From: Nitrospirota bacterium
GTDB taxonomy: Bacteria; Nitrospirota; UBA9217
DNA: 64,000 nt
NCBI GenBank assembly: GCA_963840455.1
Contig: CAWIYV010000011.1
Location: 160,001-224,000, forward strand
Direction of reading: 5' to 3'
The position numbers and the translations under genes are program-made. Below are positions 1-58,822 of this stretch, in pieces; position 1 is the first letter of the stretch; the number at the start of each line of letters is the position of its first letter. Below the pieces are notes generated by a model. It was not told where the DNA came from, ran no database searches, and worked only from the letters and a program-made list of their open reading frames with translations.

Positions 1-279
1 AGAAATAGCATCGTTCTCTTTAATATGATCTGTCTTGCCCTTTGCGTTCTCATTCAGGTGCGGAATCGCGGATTCAGGAGGAGGAACTAGATAAGATGTG
101 CCTTCCTCCTTACGCTGGTTGCGAAGAACGTTATCGGAAATGGTTTCCTCTCCCTTTGTTTGTTCCGGGGAAAGCTCCTCAGTATTGGTCCATAGAGCAT
201 TGTGGACAGACGGACTTATGGAGAAATGATGGCAACTTCCGTTGATCCTGCTCACGATTTGTCGTAAATATCCGCTCAT
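1..279 (-). CDS. Hypothetical eCIS-locus protein, N-terminal part (runs off window)
   Basis: ATG at 279-277 overlaps the TGA of the upstream ORF (ATGA). Open to the window edge: MSGYLRQIVSRINGSCHHFSISPSV...; not in the ORF track because it is truncated. Confidence 0.7.
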   Translation of the reverse strand, partial: MSGYLRQIVSRINGSCHHFSISPSVHNALWTNTEELSPEQTKGEETISDNVLRNQRKEEGTSYLVPPPESAIPHLNENAKGKTDHIKENDAIS

Positions 280-1076
280 GAATGCCCCCTTTGTCGGACT
301 GAGGATCCGGTGTCGGCCAGGTCCACATACATGAGCCTCACGCTCCGGGGCAACGATAGGATCTCGTTGAGGCTCCAGCCATAGGTGCGTGCGAGCCGGT
401 CCACTTCACGGGCAAGAAGCTTTTTGCCGCTTCCAAGGGCAGTAAGGAGGAAATACTGGATGTCGAAATGTACTACCTGTTGCTCACCACACTCAGGACA
501 TCGTGCGTCCATATCAAGATCCAGCAGGGGGGCCGCTTCTTCCATCGCGCGCTCTATGGCATCCGGGTCGTCTTGAGTTTGTCTGTTAATGACACAGCGC
601 TGGAGTAGCACGTTAATAGCTCGGTCTGGTTCTATTTCCAACACGGCGCATTCATCCTCTCCGGTAGGAAGCCGGAAGCAGGTGCCTTCCGGCAGGGTAA
701 AAACGCCGTCATGCTCCTGCTGAGTATGCGCGTGTTTCACGTTCCGGGCCAAGTGGTCAAGCAGGGCGCCAAGGTCAAAGCCCACATCAAAGGGGGCCTT
801 GCATTTCCTGCACATCACAGTACTTTCGATTGTTGACCCGTATGTGCGCGAATATATCTCGGCCAACAGCCGATCCCGCTCTGCTGTTGGCAATTTCTTG
901 GCAGTGCCAGATACAACATTGGAGCCTGGATCATTCACGAGGAGTCGATCCAGCAGGTGGATGGCCTCCATCGTCCCAAGGCCGCCCATATCCTGTTCGT
1001 CATGGCCGCATATTTCCCTCAAAGTTGCCCAGTGACAGTTCGGCATGAAGCATATTGGCACTTGATAGATCGACAT
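276..1076 (-). CDS. T4 baseplate-hub assembly chaperone-like protein of contractile injection system loci
   Basis: RLPTGEDE, CPECG and C-terminal EVDRLARTYGWSLNEILSLP motifs are typical of the protein following the tube gene in eCIS loci. Confidence 0.75.
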   Translation of the reverse strand: MSIYQVPICFMPNCHWATLREICGHDEQDMGGLGTMEAIHLLDRLLVNDPGSNVVSGTAKKLPTAERDRLLAEIYSRTYGSTIESTVMCRKCKAPFDVGFDLGALLDHLARNVKHAHTQQEHDGVFTLPEGTCFRLPTGEDECAVLEIEPDRAINVLLQRCVINRQTQDDPDAIERAMEEAAPLLDLDMDARCPECGEQQVVHFDIQYFLLTALGSGKKLLAREVDRLARTYGWSLNEILSLPRSVRLMYVDLADTGSSVRQRGHS

Positions 1077-1099
1077 GACACCTTTTTACTCGTGATCGA

Positions 1100-1606
1100 T
1101 TACTTCTCTGTTGGTTCGGGAACTTCGACATCGCGCTCCCAACCTTCATTCTGCACGACCATGGATTCGATGGCCACGGAGTTTCCTCCGGCATCCAGCT
1201 CCGGCAATGCCGTATACTCGGAAACCCAGCAGCGATACACCTTGTACGCCTTTGCCACGCTTCCTTGCTCGTTCAGAAGCTCAATGATGATGTCTTTGCG
1301 GAAGTTCTTGAGAGAGATGGCGGCGTCGCCTCCGGTGTTGTAGATGAGCTTTGCCCAGTTCTCGAACTCCACATCGTGCGTCACGCCGCGCTCAAGGTGG
1401 ATGGGCTCAAATTTCCATTTCGACGGTGCAACGCGTGAAGTACTTGGATCGCCTCCCTCGCGGTGCGTGACCGGCTCCGTCGACTGCTTCAGAGCGCCGA
1501 TCTTGCTGACACCCGCGACGTATTTGCCGTCCCACTTGATCCGGAACTTGAAGTTCTTGTACGGATCGAATCGATGCGCATTAACGGGGAATTGTGGCGC
1601 GCCCAT
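1100..1606 (-). CDS. Phage tail tube protein (T4 gp19-like, eCIS inner tube)
   Basis: RFDPYKNFKFRIKWDG...HREGGD...LERGVTHD..FENWA...ELDA motifs. Confidence 0.93.
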   Translation of the reverse strand: MGAPQFPVNAHRFDPYKNFKFRIKWDGKYVAGVSKIGALKQSTEPVTHREGGDPSTSRVAPSKWKFEPIHLERGVTHDVEFENWAKLIYNTGGDAAISLKNFRKDIIIELLNEQGSVAKAYKVYRCWVSEYTALPELDAGGNSVAIESMVVQNEGWERDVEVPEPTEK

Positions 1607-1633
1607 ATCATTTTCTCCTTTTTTTACAGTATG

Positions 1634-4180
1634 TTAGACTTGGACCTGTCCAGCCATCTGCTGTAGTTTGATAATTACGAATTCTGCCGGCTTGAGAGGT
1701 GCAAAGCCCACGTGAATGTTGACTATGCCAAGATTGATGTCATTCTGCGTCGTCGTCTCCTTGTCGCATTTGACAAAATAGGCATCTCGCGGCACCTGGC
1801 CCTGGAACGCTCCCTGCCGGAAGAGATCGTGCATGAACGCCCCGACGTTGAGGCGAATCTGCGACCAGAGTGGCTCGTCGTTGGGTTCAAAGACAACCCA
1901 TTTTAGATTTCGATAGAGAGTTTCTTCTATGAAGAGAGCCAATCTCTTAACGGGTATATATTTATACTCGCTCGCAAAACTGTCATCGCCATCCATGGTG
2001 CGTGCGCCCCAATTGACAATGCCGTTGGGGAATAGTCGCAAGGTATTGACCGCTTTGGGATTCATGTAACCATTTTCTGTATCTGAAAAATTATACTCTA
2101 GGCCTTGTACACCTCTCAGATCGGCTTCGGTTCCTGCCGGGGCTTTCCACACGCCACGGGCGCTATCGATGCGCGCCATGAGTCCGGCAATGGCACCACT
2201 CGGGCCGATTGTTACAGTACCACCGTTTTCACGCACTTTGATTCTTGGAAAAAATACAGCACTCGAGTTCTTTACTAGTCCAATTCGCAGTGAATTTACT
2301 CCATCAGTGGGACTGACAGCGATATTAGAATCCTTCCATTTCTCAGGTGGATCAATCAGGAGGAACGCTCGACGTTTTTCACAAAAAACACTTGCAGGCG
2401 GCCAAAGACTTGCTGATGTCTTATCATCATGATCTCTATCTTTTGGCAAAACCATTATATTGAACAAATCCACTTCGCTGTCGATAATCTTAAAAGCTTT
2501 TTCATAATCAGGCAACTGAGGTGTGCCGCCATCATTTCCCGCTATCCCGGGAACAACCTGACATGCGCTGGATCCGCTGGTGCCGAGGCAATAGCATCGC
2601 GTATTTTTTATGAAGCTTGGACCGACATCTTTTCCTCCACCTGCTATGCTGCTCGTGCTGATATTCGTTGATATGTTTTCAGTTTTTTCAGTGCTCTTTA
2701 TTACGAGGCGTGCGCCCCACACCTCAGCACTCCAGACAAAATCCCGTTTTTTTACCCGCACGCTGTTAATTGCTTCCGCAATTATATTCAGCTTTTCTCT
2801 GACACCCCGGGCACCATTATTTACGTTTGTCGCGCTACTATCGTGATACATACTTGCCACGTTACCCGACGGCAAGGGAGGGGTCGTCGTGAGTTTGTAA
2901 GGCCCTGTTAAATCAATATCGGTTCCAGCAATCGTAATTCTGTCAAAAGCTGTTTGATCAGATTGGGAAAATTCATCGAGATCATCTATGTTAAACGTGC
3001 CTCCTGATGGATCTGTCGGGCGAAAGACGATTCCGTTTGGGGCCGGTCGCTTTTTAGCATATTTAGATATTTCAAGCCCACCTAGAGCCGGACCCAGCAT
3101 CAGAGGGGCGGCGAGGTCTTTATCAGCCGCCGGCTCAATAAGTACATCTCCTTTGGCTGATGCGATAATAATGTAGTAAGTAATTTGATTATCCTGACCT
3201 GGATAGCTGTTCGGGCCTGTATAGAAGGGAAGTGCAGTAAGCCCGGCCGGGGTATAACTAGAATTTATGCATACGTATACCTTCGCTCCAAATGCGAGAC
3301 TGTCGTTAATAGTCTTCTCGACCACACCCCCTATGTTATTCCATATTGTATCGTTAGTATATAATTGCATATTCGCGGCGCCACCGCTCCCGTAAATGGG
3401 ATGAGCCGCATCAAGAAATGTAATAGCGGATAGATCGACATCTACAAAAGGATTACCGTCAACGCTGATTCTGAATTTATTTCCAAGTGCATTAGCATTG
3501 GCCCCAAACAGTTGTGAAATTTGTTGGGCAAAAAAAGGATGGTCATTGTTTTTAGCGGAAATCGGTCTCCCCGATTGTGAGTACCCATAAGCCGCTTCAG
3601 TTCCGGGGCCGCCGCTGACATCTGTAATGTCGACTAAGGCCGAGTTTTGAGTTACAAGCGTCGGTGCAAATCGTGGGCTATTCGGATCCATGCATAATTC
3701 TCGATATATCTCGCTCTCAGATTCAGAGAGAGAATCTCCTCTCTTTATCATTCGGAATACTCTGAGATTGAAAGTGGACTCTGGTCGTTGGGTATTGTAG
3801 TCAACGGCAATACGAATTTCATCTCCGGCAACACCCGCTGATTTAGCAGTGATCTTTATAGAGTCGGCACTGGCATCTTCGTTTTTTATTGTTATTTCAG
3901 ACTTTCTCCATGTGTTATCTGCGATGCGCATGACATAACAATCTGTCCCGCCGTTCATAAAAAACATTTTCACCGCTCTCACGAGGTCGCTTCCGGCGTC
4001 AAGAGCTGTAAATTTCCGTTCGAACGCATCAAAGCTTGAACATCGATTCGGTTTGAACAATTCGCCTTTCTTCGCTCGGCCAATGAACATCGCAGTTGAA
4101 GTTCCAACTCCTACAATGGTTCTTACTCCACTTGGGATTTCTTCTACATAAACGCCCGGATACGTCGGATTTACTGGCAT
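1634..4180 (-). CDS. Phage tail sheath protein (contractile), 848 aa with large internal insertion
   Basis: N-terminal YPGVYVEE; C-terminal RGVWKAPAG, WGART, WVVFEPND, GFAPLKPAEFV. RBS AGGAGG upstream. Confidence 0.95.
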   Translation of the reverse strand: MPVNPTYPGVYVEEIPSGVRTIVGVGTSTAMFIGRAKKGELFKPNRCSSFDAFERKFTALDAGSDLVRAVKMFFMNGGTDCYVMRIADNTWRKSEITIKNEDASADSIKITAKSAGVAGDEIRIAVDYNTQRPESTFNLRVFRMIKRGDSLSESESEIYRELCMDPNSPRFAPTLVTQNSALVDITDVSGGPGTEAAYGYSQSGRPISAKNNDHPFFAQQISQLFGANANALGNKFRISVDGNPFVDVDLSAITFLDAAHPIYGSGGAANMQLYTNDTIWNNIGGVVEKTINDSLAFGAKVYVCINSSYTPAGLTALPFYTGPNSYPGQDNQITYYIIIASAKGDVLIEPAADKDLAAPLMLGPALGGLEISKYAKKRPAPNGIVFRPTDPSGGTFNIDDLDEFSQSDQTAFDRITIAGTDIDLTGPYKLTTTPPLPSGNVASMYHDSSATNVNNGARGVREKLNIIAEAINSVRVKKRDFVWSAEVWGARLVIKSTEKTENISTNISTSSIAGGGKDVGPSFIKNTRCYCLGTSGSSACQVVPGIAGNDGGTPQLPDYEKAFKIIDSEVDLFNIMVLPKDRDHDDKTSASLWPPASVFCEKRRAFLLIDPPEKWKDSNIAVSPTDGVNSLRIGLVKNSSAVFFPRIKVRENGGTVTIGPSGAIAGLMARIDSARGVWKAPAGTEADLRGVQGLEYNFSDTENGYMNPKAVNTLRLFPNGIVNWGARTMDGDDSFASEYKYIPVKRLALFIEETLYRNLKWVVFEPNDEPLWSQIRLNVGAFMHDLFRQGAFQGQVPRDAYFVKCDKETTTQNDINLGIVNIHVGFAPLKPAEFVIIKLQQMAGQVQV

Positions 4181-26162: not shown

Positions 26163-26543
26163 ATGAAAAAGCTATTTACTTTTATAACACTGATGGTTTT
26201 CACTATAGCGATCAGCGTGGCGTATGCTGATGAGATAATTGCGTTCGGCAGCAATAAAGACATCGGCACCTTTCTCTATGAAGATACCTTTGCACCACGT
26301 GACACGGTTTTGGCAGACAAAGAGGCAGTAAGCTCGACTCCGGGAGGAGATGAAATACCCATGTTTGGTAGCAACAAAGATATTGGCACCATGCTCTATG
26401 AGGATGCATTTGCCGTACATGAGACGGCTATGGCGGGAAGAGACGCAAGAGGTTCTGCCGCGGGTGGTGTGGCAAATGTTGACGAGAACACCAGGATCTG
26501 GGATACACTTCTCAGCCCGGTGGGAGGTTCAGACCTTCCGTAG
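26163..26543 (+). CDS. Small secreted protein with internal repeats, paralog 1
   Basis: Signal peptide; two FGSNKDIGTxLYEDxFA repeats; RGSAAGG...DENTRIWDTLL...GGSDLP. Confidence 0.8.
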   Translation: MKKLFTFITLMVFTIAISVAYADEIIAFGSNKDIGTFLYEDTFAPRDTVLADKEAVSSTPGGDEIPMFGSNKDIGTMLYEDAFAVHETAMAGRDARGSAAGGVANVDENTRIWDTLLSPVGGSDLP

Positions 26544-27203: not shown

Positions 27204-27285
27204 TACATTAGACTATAATATACAGTTAAGAAAAGAGGTGAGGAAAGCTGAATAACTGCATAGTTAAGGAAAAGAGGTGATTTGT

Positions 27286-27675
27286 ATGAAGAGGACCATA
27301 ACCATAGTAGCAGCAATGGTGCTCGTCCTCGCCTTCGTGACGGCCTTCGCAGATGAAATGCCGATCTTGACGACGGTGAGCAAGGATGCCGGGAACATGC
27401 TGTACCTTGAAGAGGCGCCGGGACACGCGCACACAAAGCGGTTCCAGGGGGACCTTTTTTACGAACCCAAGGATGTTCTCAGGCCAACGGCCAAGAAGGA
27501 TTTCAGCGCTCCTATCGTTGAGGAAAAACTCGTCGATTCGGGCACCGCTCTCTACGAGTCAGCATTCGAAACGAAGCCGGTAGGCATCACCGGAATGGCG
27601 GCAGGAGGTGTTGCTAGAGAGGACGAGAACACCAGGATCTGGGACAATCTCATGGGACCTCCAGGGGGTAATTAG
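27286..27675 (+). CDS. Small secreted protein, paralog 2
   Basis: Signal peptide; KDAGNMLY and DSGTALYESAF repeats; GMAAGGVAREDENTRIWDNLMGPPGGN. Confidence 0.8.
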   Translation: MKRTITIVAAMVLVLAFVTAFADEMPILTTVSKDAGNMLYLEEAPGHAHTKRFQGDLFYEPKDVLRPTAKKDFSAPIVEEKLVDSGTALYESAFETKPVGITGMAAGGVAREDENTRIWDNLMGPPGGN

Positions 27676-31170: not shown

Positions 31171-32175
31171 TCAATGGGAAAGGCTGTTGACCTGGGGGAC
31201 GAGGCGCTGGTACTCCTCGTAGGGGATCTGGGAATGCCACTTGCCGGCAAGCACACCGATGCCGATGACGAGGTAGAACAGCACGACGAGAAGGACGGGA
31301 TAGAGATAGGGCTTGAGCACGGACACGCGCTTCCCCGCCTTGACCGTCATGTCCAGGGCGCCCGGTGCAGGGCAGTGGCTCACGCAGGTCATGCAGCCGA
31401 AGCACTCTCCGGACTTGATGACGTCCTTCTTTTCCACGTCGATGAGCGCGGGGCAGTGCTTTGTGCAGGCGTGGCAATGGATGCACTTCTCCTCGTTCCG
31501 CCGGACCTTGACGGGGCTTAAGCGGCTTACGATCCCGAGGAGCGCGCCGTAGGGGCAAAGGTAGCGGCACCAGACGTTCTTGTACAGGAGGGAAAGGATG
31601 CCCAGAGCAACAAGGACCCAGAAGGTGAGCGAGGACATGTCGGTGAAGAACTTGAGCATCTTCACGTCCGCCACCTTGTAGTAGTCGGACCCGAAGAACA
31701 TGAGGATCATGGTGCTGCCCATGGCGACGACGATGACCCAGAAGAACAGGGAGAGCAGGACATATTTGATGGACCGGAGGCCGATGTCGGTGTACTGCTC
31801 CACCCGGAAGTTCCTGCCGAAGATCTTCTCGCCGGCCATCCAGACATACTGCGACAGCGTGCCCACGGGGCAGATCCACCCGCAGAAGCCCTTTTTCAGG
31901 GACAGCGATACGCCGGTTATGGCGATGAACAGGATGAGGCCCGAGGGATGGAGGGGCTCCACGAGGCCGGTGACGGCGAAGAACTTGAAGGCCATCAGCC
32001 CGCCGATGGGCAGGAACGCGTCCACTGACGGCGGCCGCTGGACAAAAGGATGGCCGGGGGCCTCGAAGTGCAGCACGAACTGGGCGAACTGCCAGCCGAC
32101 AAATAGCGTAACGAGCAGGAACCAGGCCTGGACAGCGTATCGGACAAAGCGGATGGAATTCCGGGGATAGGACAT
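31171..32175 (-). CDS. Membrane-bound 4Fe-4S binding protein (NapH/YccM-like)
   Basis: FCGWICPVG and WCRYLCPYG motifs; CIHCHACTKHCP and CFGCMTCVSHCP ferredoxin pair; TM helices. Confidence 0.9.
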   Translation of the reverse strand: MSYPRNSIRFVRYAVQAWFLLVTLFVGWQFAQFVLHFEAPGHPFVQRPPSVDAFLPIGGLMAFKFFAVTGLVEPLHPSGLILFIAITGVSLSLKKGFCGWICPVGTLSQYVWMAGEKIFGRNFRVEQYTDIGLRSIKYVLLSLFFWVIVVAMGSTMILMFFGSDYYKVADVKMLKFFTDMSSLTFWVLVALGILSLLYKNVWCRYLCPYGALLGIVSRLSPVKVRRNEEKCIHCHACTKHCPALIDVEKKDVIKSGECFGCMTCVSHCPAPGALDMTVKAGKRVSVLKPYLYPVLLVVLFYLVIGIGVLAGKWHSQIPYEEYQRLVPQVNSLSH

Positions 32176-32232: not shown

Positions 32233-32484
32233 TTATGCGGACTGCCGCTTCCTGATCGCGGCCTCAAGCTGCTCAGTGGTGATATCGCATCCCTCGAACA
32301 CCACAGTACCGTCGATCTCGATGGCGGGGAACTTCGGCAGCGACACCCGCTGCAGCAGGCCGAAGGACGTCTTCTTGACGACCTCAATGTCAAAGGCATA
32401 TTTCTTCTTCAGCTCCGTGACCACGGAGGTTATGTTGTTTCACCATTTCCCCTGCGGGTCGTTGAAATAGAGCTTGATCAGCAT
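32233..32484 (-). CDS. Predicted thioredoxin-like selenoprotein, NDPQGKWU motif (83 aa, Sec15)
   Basis: RBS AAGGAG and ATG 32484; in-frame TGA 32442-32440; hairpin CTCCGT-GGTC-ACGGAG 11 nt downstream. Paralog of 36136..36405 (shared KKTS and FPAIEIDG/CPSVMVDG). Confidence 0.8.
32413..32428 (-). promoter_or_regulatory. Candidate bacterial SECIS hairpin
   Basis: CTCCGT/ACGGAG stem with GGTC loop. Confidence 0.7.
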
Positions 32485-32642: not shown

Positions 32643-33833
32643 TCACGGTAAATTGCTCATCCCGTTCCTCATCTTCCAGAGGAAATACCGTTCGAACGAA
32701 AGCTTCAGCCACTTCGCCCAAACTGCCTTCTTCGTGTATGAACTCTGCCGTGGAGGCAGGACCGGATAGGCCTTCATCAGAGCGGCGGTGTTCCCCATGT
32801 CCATCAGGCAGACGACCCCGAGCTCGTCCGCAAGCGGCGGCGTCTTGCCCGTTATATCCGACGCAATGGTCGCAGCAGCCGTCTTCGCCATCTTCACGGT
32901 CATGAAACCTGTTTTCGGCACACCCGTGGGCACCGGAGTCACTTCGGGCGGAGCGATCGCAATCGCAACACCTATGGCAAAGATGTTCCTGTGCTTGGTG
33001 TGGCGATAGTTCTTGTCCACCGGGATGAAGCCCCGCGGATTGCCCAGCGGCGCGACAGCGGGAACGCCCTTGAAGGGAGGCGCGATCATGGCGAGCTTGA
33101 AGGGGATCTTCGTACCGTCTTTTAATTTGATCTCGCCCGGCGTGACTTCCTCGATGGCCCGGCTGACGATCGGCTTGATATCACGCTCGGCAAATTCGTG
33201 TTCCATAAAAGTTTTTGAGGCCCCGAGTCCACCCACGCCCATATGGCCGAGATACGGTTCGGAAGTGAGATAGATGATCGGCACCTTGTGGCGCATCTTC
33301 CTGCGCCGAAGCTCCGCATCCATCTCGAATGCAAGCTCGTAGGACGGGCCGAAGCAGCTCACCATCTGCGATGATCCGAGGACGATCGGGCCGGGATTCT
33401 CAAGAACGCTCCGCCAGGTCGCGCCGGTCTTTACCGCATGATCGAGCGTGAAGGTGCAGGCCGTGTATCCTTTGTCCGGCCCGAGGCCGGGGATCTCATC
33501 AAAAGCAAGATGCGGCCCCGTCGATATGACGAGATGATCATAGGGAATCTCTTTGCCTTGAGCTGTGATGACCTTCGATTTATCAGCATCGATCTGCTTA
33601 GCGCCATCATGAACAAACTCGATCCCCTTCCGCCTCAGGATGTCACTCACTTTGATCGAAATGTCCTCCGGCTTTCGCCAGCCCATGATCAGCCACGGCA
33701 AGGACGGCAGGAACACGAACCGCTCATCGTCGCTCACCACGGTCACGTCCGCTTTCCCGCCAAGCAGTCGCTTCAGTTCCAGGGCCGCGGTCAGCCCTCC
33801 GAACGATCCGCCTAAAACAACGATCTTTGGCAT
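32643..33833 (-). CDS. sqr: Sulfide:quinone oxidoreductase-like flavoprotein
   Basis: VVLGGSFGG FAD motif; SCFGPSYE, GVPKTGFM and VCLMDMG SQR motifs. Confidence 0.85.
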   Translation of the reverse strand: MPKIVVLGGSFGGLTAALELKRLLGGKADVTVVSDDERFVFLPSLPWLIMGWRKPEDISIKVSDILRRKGIEFVHDGAKQIDADKSKVITAQGKEIPYDHLVISTGPHLAFDEIPGLGPDKGYTACTFTLDHAVKTGATWRSVLENPGPIVLGSSQMVSCFGPSYELAFEMDAELRRRKMRHKVPIIYLTSEPYLGHMGVGGLGASKTFMEHEFAERDIKPIVSRAIEEVTPGEIKLKDGTKIPFKLAMIAPPFKGVPAVAPLGNPRGFIPVDKNYRHTKHRNIFAIGVAIAIAPPEVTPVPTGVPKTGFMTVKMAKTAAATIASDITGKTPPLADELGVVCLMDMGNTAALMKAYPVLPPRQSSYTKKAVWAKWLKLSFERYFLWKMRNGMSNLP

Positions 33834-33886: not shown

Positions 33887-34168
33887 CTAAAACATGCCTG
33901 TTACTTTCTCGCCGCTCGTTATAATGTCAGTCAGTTTGTCGTAGTCGATGACTTTGACCCGTTCATCCAGCTCGGAATCCTTGAGCCCCCGGAGCTTCTT
34001 GTCGTCATCCAGCACATACACCGCGCCGGGAAAAGACCCGAGTCGCTCCTTTTGTGCGAACAAGACCCCGTTTTGCAGCAGGACCAGATCGGCCCGGCCT
34101 TCTTGCGCAAGGGTCAGGCCGAGCGCTCCATCGTTCGTATCCGGTGCGCTTTTTACGATCACCAGCAT
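33887..34168 (-). CDS. dsrH: DsrH/TusB-family sulfur relay protein
   Basis: MLVIVKSAP, LVLLQNGV, YVLDDDKKLRGL, IDYDKL. Confidence 0.85.
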   Translation of the reverse strand: MLVIVKSAPDTNDGALGLTLAQEGRADLVLLQNGVLFAQKERLGSFPGAVYVLDDDKKLRGLKDSELDERVKVIDYDKLTDIITSGEKVTGMF

Positions 34169-34542: not shown

Positions 34543-34887
34543 TTATATGCCGAAATTTAGAAACACGGGTTTTGACTTCACAACATTGAAGAGCCCCTTC
34601 AACGAGCTCATCTCGCCGCCCTCAATGGAATCGTCAGCCGCAAGACCGCGGCTTTTCATGCACCCTGTTCAGATATCCACCTTGAGGCCTTTACCCACAA
34701 GGTCTACCAGCGTGGAGAGCGCCTGCGGGACCTGTCCCTTCACAATAGAAAAAACGCCGTCGCCCGAAGCAATAAGTCTTGCCCGGTGCCCCTTCTTCAG
34801 AGCAGCTTCCGCCAGCTTGAAAATCGTGTGCGTGTTCTCAAAGCTGTAGGGAGTCGTGGAAAGGAACATCACAATCTCTTTTTGCAT
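34543..34887 (-). CDS. dsrE: DsrE/TusD-family protein with predicted Sec (UxxC), 114 aa
   Basis: TTPYS...DGV motif. TGA 34671-34669 reads through to VDI-U-TGCMKSRGL...FLNFGI*, completing the family fold; hairpin follows. Confidence 0.85.
34636..34653 (-). promoter_or_regulatory. Candidate bacterial SECIS hairpin
   Basis: AGCCGC-GGTCTT-GCGGCT, 15 nt after the TGA. Confidence 0.72.
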
Positions 34888-34942: not shown

Positions 34943-36095
34943 TCAGTTCCGGACACCAAGCAGTATCTGCTCGTGATAAATCGGATAAGCGATCGGATCG
35001 ACATTGTTGTAGCCGATCTTTTTCCGCCGTGCTTCATCCAGAAGATGATATTGCACGGTCACATCCACAACTGCGGGAGTGTCGCTGCCACGCTCGCTCA
35101 CGGAAAACCTGAAATCTCTCGGCTGCCCGTACGGCAGCCGCGTGTCCCGGAGGTCGACAATGAACGGCCTCCACAGGATGTACCGCTTCATGGTGTACAC
35201 TTTCTCAGCCAGTACCTGCCCGCTCGATCCGAGGAGCCGAAGCTCCAGGGTAAGATGCCGGTCCGGTGTGCCGGTCGGCAGATAGTGAGCCGCTCCCACG
35301 TTCGTAAGGGTGACGACCAGCCTGTCGCCCTCCAACCGATGGTCTACCCGGAGCGACTCCTTCACGCGCTCCGGTTCATGTCCGCCGTGGAACAGATGCC
35401 GTCGCCCTTTCCGGGATGGCATCCCCTCGGCGGCCGGACGCACGACGGCGGGCATGTGGCAGGAAACGCAGTCTATCGTCTGACTGCCCTCTTCTATTTC
35501 CGCTACGGTGCCGCAGGGCGGAATAGTATAGAACGTATCCCACCGTTTTCCCGCTACCACATGGCACCTCTGGCACGGTTTGATCCCCTGCGACATCCCG
35601 GGATCGTACTCTACAGGATGAGGCGCCCTGACCGTTGGGAACGGACCGACGATCCTGCCATTCCGGATGTGGCACACCGCGCACGTTACGCCCTCGTCCC
35701 GCAGCGCTGCTGTCGTAGTCCGGATTCGGTGCGAGGATGGGGTCGAATTTATCCCGGTCCCTGAAGCCAAGGACGAGATTCTGTTGCTGGTTCACCAGCG
35801 GCGTGTGGCAGTTGAGGCAGATCTGCTGGGAACCATCATAGAGGAAATCAACCTGGAAGTAGGGCTCGGTCCACGCCAGGGCGTGCATGCTGCCGGCCCA
35901 CTCGCGATAGATCGCCTCATGACATTTCCCGCATTCCTTCGCCTTTACTGAGGCGATGCCGGGAACCGTCCCGATGTGCATCGGCCGCTCGAACCGTTCA
36001 TCGACCACGAAGATGTTCATCGGCCGCAGGAACCGCCAGAGCAGGAACAGGACAACCAACACCACAAGGCTTATCCACAACGCTTTCCTTGTCAT
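34943..36095 (-). pseudogene. Membrane-anchored pentaheme cytochrome c (about 383 aa), single-base frameshift near 35711
   Basis: CGKCH and CLNCH in one frame; CAVCH, CQRCH and CVSCH in another. Deleting one base gives NPDYD-AALRDEGVTCAVCH. Confidence 0.8.
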
Positions 36096-36135: not shown

Positions 36136-36405
36136 TCACGCGCCTCCCGTTGATGTGCCGGCCAGGGCCGCCCGCAGCAGCTCAACGTCGGCCACGCCGT
36201 CCCGTACAATGAACTTCCCGTCCACCATCACCGACGGGCAGGGGGGTGGATCCTTCTCCGCGGCGTATTCCGATGAAGTCTTCTTGATGGTCCTGATCTC
36301 GGCGCCGAACTCCTGCGCCGCCCGCCGGGCGGCGTCCTGGTTCGCCAATCATCGTTTCCCCATGGGATCGTTCGCGAACAAGGTGATCGTATGCTTCTGC
36401 ATCAT
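36136..36405 (-). CDS. Predicted thioredoxin-like selenoprotein, NDPMGKRU motif (TsoC-like NEPxGxxU family, from memory)
   Basis: ATG overlaps the ArsR stop; in-frame TGA 36351-36349; hairpin CGCCGCCC-GGC-GGGCGGCG 14 nt downstream; PPPCPSVMVDG. Confidence 0.83.
36316..36334 (-). promoter_or_regulatory. Candidate bacterial SECIS hairpin
   Basis: 8-bp GC stem with GGC loop; same apex and spacing as 56747-56765. Confidence 0.72.
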
Positions 36406-36743
36406 CGTCTCCTCTCTCCGGGATAGGTTCCTTTTTTCGTCACCGGACAGCACGCCGGCGCGGGGATATCCTCTTCATATTCCTTTTTCATCAGTTGCAG
36501 CAGGTCAGGGATGAGGGGTTCCTTGAGGAAATAACACTTGAGCCGGCCGTCAACGAAGAAATCAACGATTTGATGCGAACGCAGCAGCTTGAGGTGCTGC
36601 GACACGTTCGGCTGGCTGATGTCGAGGGAATCCTCGAAGTCGCTCACGCACTTGACTCCCTGCACGAGCTCTTCAAGTATCTTGATCCTGACCGGGTGGG
36701 CAAGTATCTTTAAAAGCTCTATCCTTTTGTCCGTCGAAAGCAT
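36402..36743 (-). CDS. ArsR/SmtB-family metalloregulator with C-terminal CC motif
   Basis: LKILAHPVRIKIL...KCVSD...SQPNVSQHLKLLR...PACCP. Confidence 0.92.
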   Translation of the reverse strand: MLSTDKRIELLKILAHPVRIKILEELVQGVKCVSDFEDSLDISQPNVSQHLKLLRSHQIVDFFVDGRLKCYFLKEPLIPDLLQLMKKEYEEDIPAPACCPVTKKGTYPGERRR

Positions 36744-36773
36744 AAGCGCAAACCTCCGATAAGATATATGCAA

Positions 36774-36802
36774 ACATTATTATGTTTTTATGAAATTGTC
36801 AA
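36774..36802 (-). promoter_or_regulatory. Sigma-70 promoter of the ArsR/selenoprotein operon
   Basis: TTGACA-N17-TAATGT. Confidence 0.55.
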
Positions 36803-56096: not shown

Positions 56097-57509
56097 ATGT
56101 TGCGAAAATGCATCAGCCTTTCCCTTGCAACGGTCCTGACATCCGGCATCCTTATCGCCGGCCAGGCCGGAGCGCAGGAAAAGGCCGCAGCACCGGCAGC
56201 TCCGCAGGCGAAGCCCACCGTGGCCAAGGTCTGCGCGAACTGTCACCAGCCGCAGCCCGGGAACCTTCGGGCAAATTTCGACAGCGTAGCCTACAAGACC
56301 AGGTCGATCCAGGTCAAGATCGACGAGGCGACCGAGATCCTGCGGTTCGATGATAAGCTCCAGCTCGTGAACATCCAGGCCCCCGCCGACGCACCGGACC
56401 AGCCGCTCCGGGCGCTCAAGAAGGGCAAGGAGGTCCGGATCGAGTATACCGAGAAGGACGGCAAGAAGTTCATGACCCTTATCTCGGCCAAGCCGCCCAT
56501 CAAGATCGCGCCCGAGAAGATGGTCAAGACCGAGGACGTTGAGAAGCTCGTTGCGCTGGGTCCGGAAAAGGGCAAGTATATGCTTATCGATGCCCGGCCG
56601 CTTCCGCGGTTCCAGGAAGGCTTCATTCCCACGGCGGTGAACATCCCCTTCCCGGCCTTCGAGAAGATGAAGGACAAGCTCCCGGCGGACAAGGCGACGC
56701 TCATCGTCTATTACTGCGCCGGGGTCACCTGAGCGATGAGCCCTGACTCTGCCCGGCGGGCAGAGAACCTTGGTTACACCAATGTGAAGGTCTACCACGA
56801 CGGCGTGCCGGAGTGGGTGAAGCGGAACTATCTCGTACTGTCAACGCAGTTCCTGAAGGATGCATGGATCGAGAAGGACATCCCGCATGTGCTCGTGGAC
56901 GTGCGGCCCGCAGCGGAAGCTGAAAAGGGATTCATCAAGGGCGCGGTCACGGTCCCCGTCGTAGAGATCGAGAAGGCCATCGCCAAGTTCCCGCCCAAGG
57001 ACAAGAAGGCGCCCATCATGATCTACGATCAGAAGGGCGGCGATGACGCGGTCAAGGCGGCGAAGGCGCTCATCACGGCGGGCTATGCGCCGGTGGACAT
57101 CGTATCAGGCGGGTTCGACGGCTGGAAGGCTGCGGGCTTCCCGGTCCAGACGGGCAAGCTCGCGACGAACATCGTGTACGTGCCCAAGCCGCGGCCCGGC
57201 GAGATCTCCATCGAGGACTTCACGAAGATCGCCATGAATACGCCTGCGGACACCCTGATCCTCGATGTACGCAACCGCGACGAGGGCAATGCCGGCATGA
57301 TCAAGGGCGCGAAGCTCGTGCCCGACGAGGAGATCCTCGACCGGTTTGCCGAGGTCCCGAAGGACAAGAAGATCGTGACCCATTGCTCCACAGGCGTGCG
57401 TGCCGAGATGGCCTACCACAAGCTGAAGGAGAAGGGCTACAACGTCCAGTTCCTGAACGCCAAGGTGGAGATCAACGACAAGGGCGAGTTCAAGCTCGAG
57501 AAGCCCTGA
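56097..57509 (+). CDS. Predicted exported selenoprotein: heme-c motif + three rhodanese domains (470 aa, Sec212)
   Basis: ORFs 56097..56732 and 56736..57509 are in the same frame, separated only by TGA in YCAGVT-U-AMS. Signal peptide, CANCH, hairpin after the TGA. Confidence 0.87.
56747..56765 (+). promoter_or_regulatory. Candidate bacterial SECIS hairpin
   Basis: CTCTGCCC-GGC-GGGCAGAG, 14 nt after TGA 56730-56732. Confidence 0.75.
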
Positions 57510-57640: not shown

Positions 57641-58495
57641 TCAGGGCGCGCCGGGGAAACGCCGTTTTTCCAGAAGCAATACCATGCGGTCCAGGTGGAC
57701 CTTCTCCTCAGCTGCAAGGACCTGGAATACCCGCTTCGCGCTTTCCCCTGCCAGCTCCCGCTCCATTCTGATGTAGAGATCAAATGCGTGCGACTCCAGC
57801 GCTATGGACAGGTCCAGGACGTCGTTCACATCCTTGCCCTTCACCCATTCGAGGGCCTTCGTCACCGACATGCCTCCCTCCATCACCTCTCCCGGGACAG
57901 TACCCAAAAAGAACGCCTCCGGGATCGCCGTAGCAGCCGTGTCGCCGGTCGCCTCGCGATATACTCCGACCAGGGCCGCCTTGTGATGGTCCTCGGCACG
58001 CACTAGTCCGTCGAAGAGGCCGACGGCTTCGCGGTCCTCAAGTGCTGACGCCATGCTGTGGTAGAACCGTCGCGATCCTTCCTCCAGCGACCACGCGAGG
58101 GCGATCAGCTCTTCGGGCTTTTCCCTGCCGGAGAACAGGACCATGCCTGCCTCGGGCGGACCGTCGACAACGAGGCCGCGCCAGGCCTGGATCCCGCCCT
58201 CCATGCTGAACACGTTCGTGAAACCGGCGTCGAGCAGGATGCTCGCTGCAGCCCGGCTTCGGTTCCCGGAACGGCAATAGAGCACGGTCGGCCGGGAACG
58301 GTCGAGCTCCCGCTCGCGCTCATACAGATCTCCCAGCGGGACGAGCGCCGCGCCGGGGATATGTCCCTGGCCGTATTCGCCCGGCTGACGTACATCGATG
58401 AGATTATACGCGCCCGGGTCTCTCTCCCTGAGCAGGTCCTTCACCTGCCGGGCGGTCATGGCAGGTATGGGTTTGAACGGGCCGGTGGGGATCAT
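57641..58495 (-). CDS. Rhodanese domain + rubrerythrin/ferritin-like domain protein
   Basis: IDVRQPGEY..GHIPGA, YCRSGNRS; then EEGSRRFY...EDHH and ESHAFDLY...EEKVH di-iron motifs. Confidence 0.88.
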   Translation of the reverse strand: MIPTGPFKPIPAMTARQVKDLLRERDPGAYNLIDVRQPGEYGQGHIPGAALVPLGDLYERERELDRSRPTVLYCRSGNRSRAAASILLDAGFTNVFSMEGGIQAWRGLVVDGPPEAGMVLFSGREKPEELIALAWSLEEGSRRFYHSMASALEDREAVGLFDGLVRAEDHHKAALVGVYREATGDTAATAIPEAFFLGTVPGEVMEGGMSVTKALEWVKGKDVNDVLDLSIALESHAFDLYIRMERELAGESAKRVFQVLAAEEKVHLDRMVLLLEKRRFPGAP

Positions 58496-58822
58496 GATCG
58501 CATCGTAGGACGCCAGACATCGGCAAGCCGGGTCTGCGTTCCTCCTCCCTTTGACTCCAGCACATACCGAAAAAGCTCCCGGCACATCTGGAGGCGTTCA
58601 GAAGATCTTCCGCTCCGATTCGTTGAGCTTCTCGGTCCGTGGCTTGAGTGCCTCGCACGGGGGCACACCACGGTCAGAGACTGCGTATCCGCTGTCCTGC
58701 CGGAGATGTCGTTGAACTCGTTCAGCCAGTCAGGGGCCAATGTCCGAATGAGGAGAAAAGCAGTTTGTCGCTGCGATCTGTGCGCCGTCAGCGTCTGCGG
58801 TCAGCTCGCGGAAGCGGCCCGG

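Follow-up and report, generated by a model that had tools for sequence, protein, structure and literature searches.

Introduction

Selenocysteine (Sec) in a protein of the DsrE fold is already known: DsrE-like selenoproteins with a UxxC motif have been catalogued since 2005. Two sequences were recorded from the Sargasso Sea (PMC1088965). One is reported from Desulfovibrio vulgaris (PMC1794560), and the catalogues of 2022 and 2026 carry the family as functionally uncharacterised, with WP_014524487.1 as its representative (PMC9312934, PMC13188914; these and other papers are cited from their accessible parts). As described there, the catalogued family amounts to one or two sequences, with no EFH trio, Nitrospirota member or operon attached to it, and it is by description that we compare it here. 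Among related proteins, SaoD is a DsrE-like CxxC protein that is given as never being a selenoprotein (bioRxiv 10.1101/2022.07.06.499078); the accessible part of PMC9326234 concerns Actinobacteria, and the Tso families in that of PMC13188914 include no DsrE.

Complete EFH trios have been characterised in two types, both of which pass sulfur from TusA to DsrC (PMC3397948, PMC13293266). Cys78 alone binds sulfur in DsrEFH and is essential in TusBCD (PMC3397948), and Cys67 of type II DsrEFH is its counterpart (PMC13293266). The type II form (DsrEFH/YTD) is a divergent EFH trio of lineages with reductive DsrAB; 57% of its subtype 1 is from Nitrospirota, and a cable-bacterial form is without DsrH Cys20 (PMC13293266, PMC13047784). 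Its membership is defined by more than 80 bits on type II HMMs, Cys is found in 99.3% of 985 sequences, and the trio is syntenic with yeeE and tusA (PMC13293266). The string 'seleno' is absent from the main text of that paper, and the two matches displayed of four in its supplement are unrelated annotations. In the literature covered, which leaves out most subscription journals, we found no report of a Sec-bearing complete EFH trio or of its link to a sulfide:quinone oxidoreductase (SQR). The compilations BSepDB and Haft and Tolstoy 2025 may already include the genes described below; the available part of the BSepDB supplement has no match to 'DsrE'.

The locus and its place among DsrE-fold systems

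The window analysed here is a stretch of 64,000 nt (contig CAWIYV010000011.1, 160,001 to 224,000), and all coordinates refer to it unless another locus is named. On its minus strand, a 114-aa frame is interrupted by a single TGA in the context KVDI-U-TGCMKSRG (Table 1). The original prediction had taken this for a DsrE/TusD protein with Sec at the sulfur-carrying residue, set within a full DsrEFH trio. The trio is indeed complete, with dsrF and dsrH directly following dsrE, and the same arrangement recurs across a set of 80 loci. These were collected by searching GTDB genomes with a pair of N-terminal patterns blind to codon 73, from which 90 stretches were confirmed and 80 kept; 77 of the 80 are labelled Nitrospirota or a subgroup of it. 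A search of plasmids gave no match.

Table 1. Features of the dsrE(U) region in the window; counts refer to the 80 surveyed loci.
Feature	Position	Strand	Evidence or occurrence
dsrE/tusD-like gene, predicted selenoprotein, 114 aa, U73-T-G-C76-M-K-S-R-G	34543..34887	-	Pfam, profile, model
In-frame TGA, codon 73, predicted to be read as selenocysteine	34669..34671	-	TGA in 80/80 loci
SECIS hairpin of bacterial type (stem 6-7 bp, loop begins GGU)	34653-34636	-	fold, covariation, codon freezing
dsrF/tusC-like, 117 aa	34179..34532	-	directly after dsrE; in 79/80 loci
dsrH/tusB-like, 93 aa, window copy without Cys	33887..34168	-	in 76/80 loci
Sulfide:quinone oxidoreductase, type I-like, Cys126/160/342	32643..33833	-	Aquifex SQR 3hyv E 3.9e-99; 48/80 loci
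ArsR/SmtB-family regulator, invariant Cys32, Cys70, Cys98, Cys99	36402..36743	-	NF033788 passed; matches in 65/80 loci
Candidate promoter/operator: TTGACA then AT-rich imperfect palindrome	36766..36802	-	by eye, window and many loci
TsoC-like thioredoxin-fold selenoprotein A (predicted), NDPxGxxU, TGA 36351, accessory	36136..36405	-	NF045708 40 bits vs 45
TsoC selenoprotein B (predicted), NDPxGxxU, TGA 32442, accessory	32233..32484	-	NF045708 78 bits, passes cut-off 45
Multiheme c-type cytochrome gene inside operon, window-specific	34943..36095	-	frameshift near 35720; 0/80 loci
NapH/MauN-like membrane 4Fe-4S protein, downstream, window-specific	31171..32175	-	0/80 loci; operon membership uncertain

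The Pfam DsrE match (PF02635) spans the TGA, covering residues 5-104 (E 1.6e-12, 48 bits against a cut-off of 22.7). This domain together with UxxC defines the catalogued DsrE-like selenoprotein family, and the 114-aa protein has both; a bacterial SECIS is likewise common to the two. In a profile made of the window protein and 51 full-length homologs (52 rows), the codon-73 column is Cys in at least 90% of rows, and alignment against the PDB sets U73 on the Cys78 column of TusD from E. coli (2d1p_A) and DsrE from A. vinosum (2hy5_A), with RG seven residues further on, as had been proposed. Cys76 is invariant in all 75 gap-free loci, so the active site is a UxxC pair, again in keeping with the prediction. 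A single-sequence PDB search, dominated by designed repeat proteins, was set aside in favour of the profile search. The predicted structure of the protein with Cys in place of Sec (mean pLDDT 95.8) superposes on chains of DsrEFH, TusBCD and YchN with Z of 16-17 and rmsd of 1.4-1.7. A complex prediction for the 72-aa DsrE fragment with DsrF and DsrH scored 0.40, with one control at 0.29; because this trio was truncated, the result counts neither way.

The finer identity of the protein is less simple than its fold. The assignment to DsrE/TusD stands as regards the fold and the Cys78 column; against it, the protein reaches 16 bits where the family cut-off is 89, and the solved structure closest to it by profile is that of YchN, a CxxC protein (PDB 1JX7, E 6e-24). 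It passes no model of NCBIfam (June 2026), and the three chains all fail the respective TusD, TusC and TusB models (TIGR03012, 16 bits against 89.25; TIGR03010, 34.9 against 94.15; TIGR03011, 41.1 against 49.2). With type I DsrEFH of A. vinosum (PDB 2HY5) the trio shares the E-F-H order, detectable similarity in each chain and the Cys78 column. It differs in having Sec for Cys, an additional Cys at +3 (Ala in both A. vinosum DsrE and E. coli TusD), a shorter DsrE (114 aa as against 130 aa), no conserved equivalent of DsrH Cys20, and no dsr operon found around it, its neighbours instead being arsR and sqr. With E. coli TusBCD (PDB 2D1P) it has in common the catalytic column and the predicted fold (Z 16.1, rmsd 1.7 over 112 residues), whereas the failed cut-offs, the lack of a tusE/mnmA cluster among the flank clusters scanned and the link to SQR set it apart. 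As judged by the cut-offs and DsrH Cys20, the Nitrospirota trio is thus neither type I DsrEFH nor TusBCD. From type II/YTD it differs in having TGA at the Cys site and in its synteny, with tusA or yeeE found in only 2-3 of 80 loci and never adjacent.

The CxxC-x3-RG site, with the first Cys being Sec here, is shared with YchN and with a sister group of Cys-form relatives. The latter, about 47% identical, come from Chloroflexota, Aminicenantales, Bacillota, Spirochaetota and Bathyarchaeia, and 113 of the 120 listed have CxxC (108 by pattern, 5 by eye). In a quick tree (118 columns, 100 rows), in which we trust only this one grouping, the Nitrospirota DsrE proteins form a clade of their own (SH-aLRT 99). 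Outside the main clade, several clusters of DsrE homologs (P0139, P0141, P0142, P0235, P0237 and P0350-P0353, one of them named Nitrospirota) end just before the catalytic column; that several clusters are cut at this point suggests that they are probably further Sec-DsrE subfamilies.

The partner subunits bear on the proposal that, as DsrH has no Cys, chemistry would centre on Sec. In the window DsrH is indeed free of Cys, no conserved Cys is present among 33 aligned DsrH sequences, and the profile has a residue other than Cys in the Cys20 column. Cys is absent from only 24 of 76 DsrH sequences and present in the other 52, hence its lack is not a trait of the family; moreover, DsrF Cys68 (77/77) is invariant, as is DsrE Cys76. 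In the profile alignment DsrF Cys68 lies opposite Leu63 of DsrE, an invariant hydrophobic position, and DsrF Asp78 lies opposite Sec73; DsrF Cys68 is therefore probably structural.

Evidence that the UGA is recoded

Codon 73 is never TAA or TAG in the 80 loci, and the codons after it always continue as T/S-G-C-x-x-x-R-G. In a word-based protein search, all 120 of the 270 matches that were listed end at residue 72, just before the TGA, and the taxa named among them are Nitrospirota. Taken at face value, these annotations would make the TGA a true stop that leaves a 72-aa fragment or a pseudogene. The coding tail argues against this: among the 75 gap-free sequences, pairwise differences in the codons after 86 are 0.41 synonymous and 0.25 non-synonymous, as against 0.49 and 0.19 in the codons before the TGA, which indicates protein-level constraint on the tail. 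In all, the 41 post-TGA codons show the same kind of conservation as the remainder of the gene, and in the predicted model the read-through frame completes the DsrE fold.

Further evidence comes from a hairpin whose loop, GGUCUU, begins 21 nt past the UGA. The original prediction had likened this loop to the GGUC apex of the E. coli fdhF SECIS, which it may resemble. The hairpin folds at -11.5 kcal/mol and satisfies the bacterial SECIS model quoted in the accessible part of PMC13188914. Its energy by itself is unexceptional (z -0.28; 73 of 200 shuffles fold equally well) and this, like the annotations, might be held in favour of a true stop. Yet pairing in its six-pair stem is kept to 90.4% across 75 distinct rows, and both sides are altered in 32 cells, a level matched by none of 500 shuffles and well above the 29-45% of slid controls. 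Codons 80-83, which make up the hairpin, each use one codon in 93-100% of loci; the corresponding share is 80% at Gly75 and 31-61% at 29 further conserved degenerate codons. Since kindred sequences can outdo shuffles without any structure, it is the slid control and the codon freezing that carry the case for the SECIS. A strict SECIS script is a weak filter here: it recovered 65 dsrE sites among 81 sequences along with many chance matches. Covariation and frozen synonymous codons uphold the functional SECIS that had been proposed, and a true stop is very improbable. An alternative genetic code, with UGA read throughout as Trp or Gly, was rejected, as the neighbouring arsR, sqr and cytochrome genes end in TGA.

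Rfam and tRNA scans of the window returned nothing. Three further Sec-type genes with hairpins are present in the window, namely two for TsoC-like thioredoxins and one for a rhodanese, and these suggest that the host probably decodes Sec. On the evidence of the aligned loci, the gene almost certainly encodes a genuine selenoprotein.

The operon and its variation

The minus-strand order in the window is arsR, TsoC-like A, a frameshifted multiheme cytochrome gene, dsrE(U), dsrF, dsrH, sqr, TsoC B and a NapH-like gene. Judging by gene order across the loci, arsR-dsrE(U)-dsrF-dsrH is a conserved Nitrospirota operon, usually followed by sqr. The frameshift in the cytochrome gene may be either a sequencing error or the mark of a pseudogene. 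An orthologous arsR is present in 63 of the 76 loci with enough flank. Its product fails both the BigR sulfur-sensor model (52 against 155 bits) and TsoR (35 against 115). A promoter consensus scan made no call at the arsR promoter in the window.

The product of sqr, whose type I label we take to be the class of the Aquifex enzyme, keeps the three catalytic Cys in 47/48, 48/48 and 46/46 of the aligned sequences, and its C-terminus is about 30 residues shorter than that of the Aquifex enzyme. Where 1.5 kb or more of downstream sequence is available (70 loci), sqr with all three Cys is found in 47 and no sqr in 23. In six sqr-less loci (L030, L039, L068, L069, L078 and L080) a NifS/IscS-like cysteine desulfurase gene directly follows dsrH; in all, a cysteine desulfurase is encoded near the trio in 9 of 80 loci. 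The flank survey took in 4818 ORFs, of which 26 representatives of clusters found in at least four loci and 83 proteins from rarer clusters were scanned. Among the 80 loci, it found genes for an MMPL transporter (22), a LolA-like protein (17) and an unassigned 412-aa protein (15), as well as the sulfur-trafficking proteins TauE (10), a second DsrE with a CGTC motif (10) and a DsrE2-like protein (8). The MMPL (for example L055:10177-12477), LolA-like (for example L034:11904-12689) and 412-aa protein (for example L018:17724-18959) genes recur directly downstream of sqr. No recurrent cluster of dsrA, dsrB, dsrC, tusE or mnmA was found within the 10-kb flanks of the 80 loci; a search for DsrC-like ORFs by C-terminal motif yielded none, and another gave five implausible frames. 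A motif search found TusA-like genes in two of 80 loci and a YeeE cluster was found in 2-3, none adjacent to the trio; YedF-like TusA-DsrE fusions are encoded in two loci.

TsoC-like Sec genes are accessory: they occur in nine loci and are missing from 71. In the window, their SECIS-like hairpins lie at 36334-36316 (A) and 32428-32413 (B). The Tso operon of Haft and Tolstoy (2025) is reportedly an ArsR-led cluster with NEPxGxxU TsoC selenoproteins. Our operon has an ArsR-led layout and a TsoC in common with it, one window gene passing NF045708; it differs in the failure of its ArsR on the TsoR model and in the accessory standing of its TsoC-like genes. Among the 12 operon-region proteins scanned, there was no match to TsoA or TsoB.

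An intergenic repeat built around a palindromic core is dispersed through the window and gives 10 matches at nine places (18530, 24880, 32610, 36825, 39780, 49886, 51904, 54240 and 57522) with at most three mismatches, where none is expected. Two copies are in or next to the operon, one before arsR and one after sqr.

Proposed function and its alternatives

On balance we lean towards the operon being an inducible module that pairs an SQR or a desulfurase with a DsrEFH-like carrier, in which a Sec73 selenopersulfide hands sulfur to an acceptor encoded elsewhere. We envisage its action as follows. The Cys-rich ArsR repressor would free the operon when sulfide or polysulfide rises. Sulfane sulfur would then be made by SQR or, in some relatives, by the cysteine desulfurase, and the selenolate of Sec73 would bind it, forming a selenopersulfide (Se-S-). 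A thiol acceptor encoded elsewhere might next receive the sulfur; this acceptor could be DsrC in hosts with the Dsr pathway, or TusA or a rhodanese. Cys76 would resolve the adduct as a selenenyl-sulfide, and TsoC-type thioredoxin-fold selenoproteins could re-reduce it where they are present.

Several observations speak for the sulfur-carrier reading: U73 sits in the Cys78 column; dsrF and dsrH are syntenic with dsrE in nearly all loci; the next gene usually encodes a source of sulfane sulfur; and TauE, the second DsrE and the DsrE2-like neighbours are sulfur-trafficking genes. A Sec enzyme acting on elemental sulfur, of a family also found in Thermodesulfovibrionia, sets a precedent for such chemistry (PMC13510729). 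The selenopersulfide relay of the original prediction thus gains from the sqr/desulfurase context as far as the carrier role is concerned, but no dsrC, tusE or dsrAB turned up among the clusters scanned within 10 kb to serve as its endpoint, and the two TusA-like genes are not adjacent. Weighing further against a carrier, SQR is absent from 23 of the 70 loci that can be judged, the ArsR fails the BigR sulfur-sensor model, and the UxxC motif with YchN as best match would also fit a redox site of the thiol-disulfide type.

This last point leads to the main rival, a UxxC oxidoreductase that detoxifies persulfides, which we regard as possible though rather doubtful. It holds that a U73/C76 selenenyl-sulfide cycle would reduce persulfides, polysulfides or oxidants arising from SQR or oxygen stress, with no hand-over to Dsr. 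The invariance of Cys76, the CxxC of nearly all sister-clade relatives listed, the top profile match to the CxxC protein YchN, and the TsoC-like Sec thioredoxins encoded in the operon (two in the window) are all in line with it, as are an ArsR-led, apparently inducible operon suited to stress defence and the fact that no acceptor gene was found in the scanned flank clusters. Conversely, the separate F and H subunits, kept in nearly all loci, agree with the make-up of the characterised sulfur-transfer complexes; that one slot is taken by either SQR or a cysteine desulfurase hints at a role in sulfur supply; and 71 of 80 loci are without TsoC-like genes. The carrier and oxidoreductase readings have their first step in common and part ways over what becomes of the sulfur.

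The trio might otherwise be a carrier or buffer of selenium that takes up selenide or selenane selenium to supply SelD, the NifS-like neighbour being a selenocysteine lyase. Of the 80 loci, 11 encode SelD near the trio, for the most part next to TauE, which is a sign of selenium handling as well and to that extent detracts from a pure sulfur carrier; several other selenoprotein genes are clustered here; and the YedF-like fusions are relevant in that YedF, with a CGxC DsrE domain, is tied to selenium metabolism (PMC5322559). Nevertheless, SQR is about four times as common a neighbour as SelD (48 against 11 of 80), and on the SclA lyase model the NifS-like protein reaches 139 where 525 is needed, yet it passes an IscS subfamily model. 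Selenoprotein genes and selD often cluster through shared supply, and we consider a selenium carrier unlikely. A role equivalent to that of TusBCD, in supplying sulfur for tRNA 2-thiouridine or cofactors, would agree with the fold, with a gene order like that of tusDCB, with the JGI naming of many homologs as TusD and with the nearby cysteine desulfurases; the failed Tus cut-offs, the lack of a tusE or mnmA cluster in the scanned flanks and an ArsR-led SQR operon that would ill suit a housekeeping tRNA pathway render it improbable.

Further selenoprotein candidates and other features of the window

A secreted multi-rhodanese protein (56097-57509, plus strand) is likely a selenoprotein, its TGA (56730-56732) being in the context YYCAGVT-U-AMSP with a hairpin at 56747-56765; it passes no specific NCBIfam model (TsoB 80 against 805, LYCAU 76 against 115). 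Opposite its gene is one for a rhodanese-rubrerythrin protein (57641-58585). Near the operon in close relatives, we observed a small dual-CxxC selenoprotein candidate with a conserved SECIS (L001:1933-2103, plus strand; L006, L009, L012 and two more sequences; NF041197, 64.7 against 40). Two more candidates, each in two loci, are a small membrane protein with GLTGT-U-LLEG and a DUF5714 protein with a C-U motif at its start; their loci are L032 (near the 8871-equivalent) and L057 (minus strand, 5431 and 8871), and L044 (11167) and L076 (12236, plus strand).

Elsewhere in the window, T4-like baseplate, tail tube and sheath genes (276-4180, minus strand) resemble a contractile injection system, and are followed by genes for a sigma-54 activator, an ISL3 transposase, a WD40 protein, and caspase-like and papain-like proteases. 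Two similar small proteins (26163-26543 and 27277-27675, plus strand) have signal-peptide-like starts and no Pfam match.

Implications

The dsrE(U) gene is very probably a real, conserved and mis-annotated selenoprotein gene in a defined operon, and its mis-annotation may matter for how sulfur metabolism is read from genomes. DsrEFH serves as a marker that separates sulfur oxidisers from sulfate reducers, a rule now under revision (PMC10591310, PMC13293266). In a survey of 750 Nitrospirota genomes, with pipelines based on Prodigal and annotation by DRAM, most Thermodesulfovibrionia with reductive dsrAB were reported to 'possess dsrFH, but no dsrE' (PMC11033732). A dsrE cut at its Sec codon beside intact dsrF and dsrH would yield just this pattern, and such truncation may explain it. 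Sequence divergence may also contribute to the missed dsrE, given that the 114-aa form, too, has low scores on TusD models.

Finally, we tentatively raise the possibility of a third, selenium-dependent type of DsrEFH, in which a selenopersulfide would link SQR polysulfide to DsrC in Thermodesulfovibrionia with reductive DsrAB and their relatives, giving presumed sulfate reducers an inducible route of sulfide oxidation or disproportionation; such a route would have escaped notice through the truncation of dsrE at the UGA by gene callers. If the reading of dsrE(U) given here is right, the annotation of at least 80 genomes would be repaired, the sulfide handling of a lineage widespread in aquifers and sediments would be tied to selenium supply, and a natural Sec/Cys pair would be at hand for asking whether selenium improves persulfide transfer.
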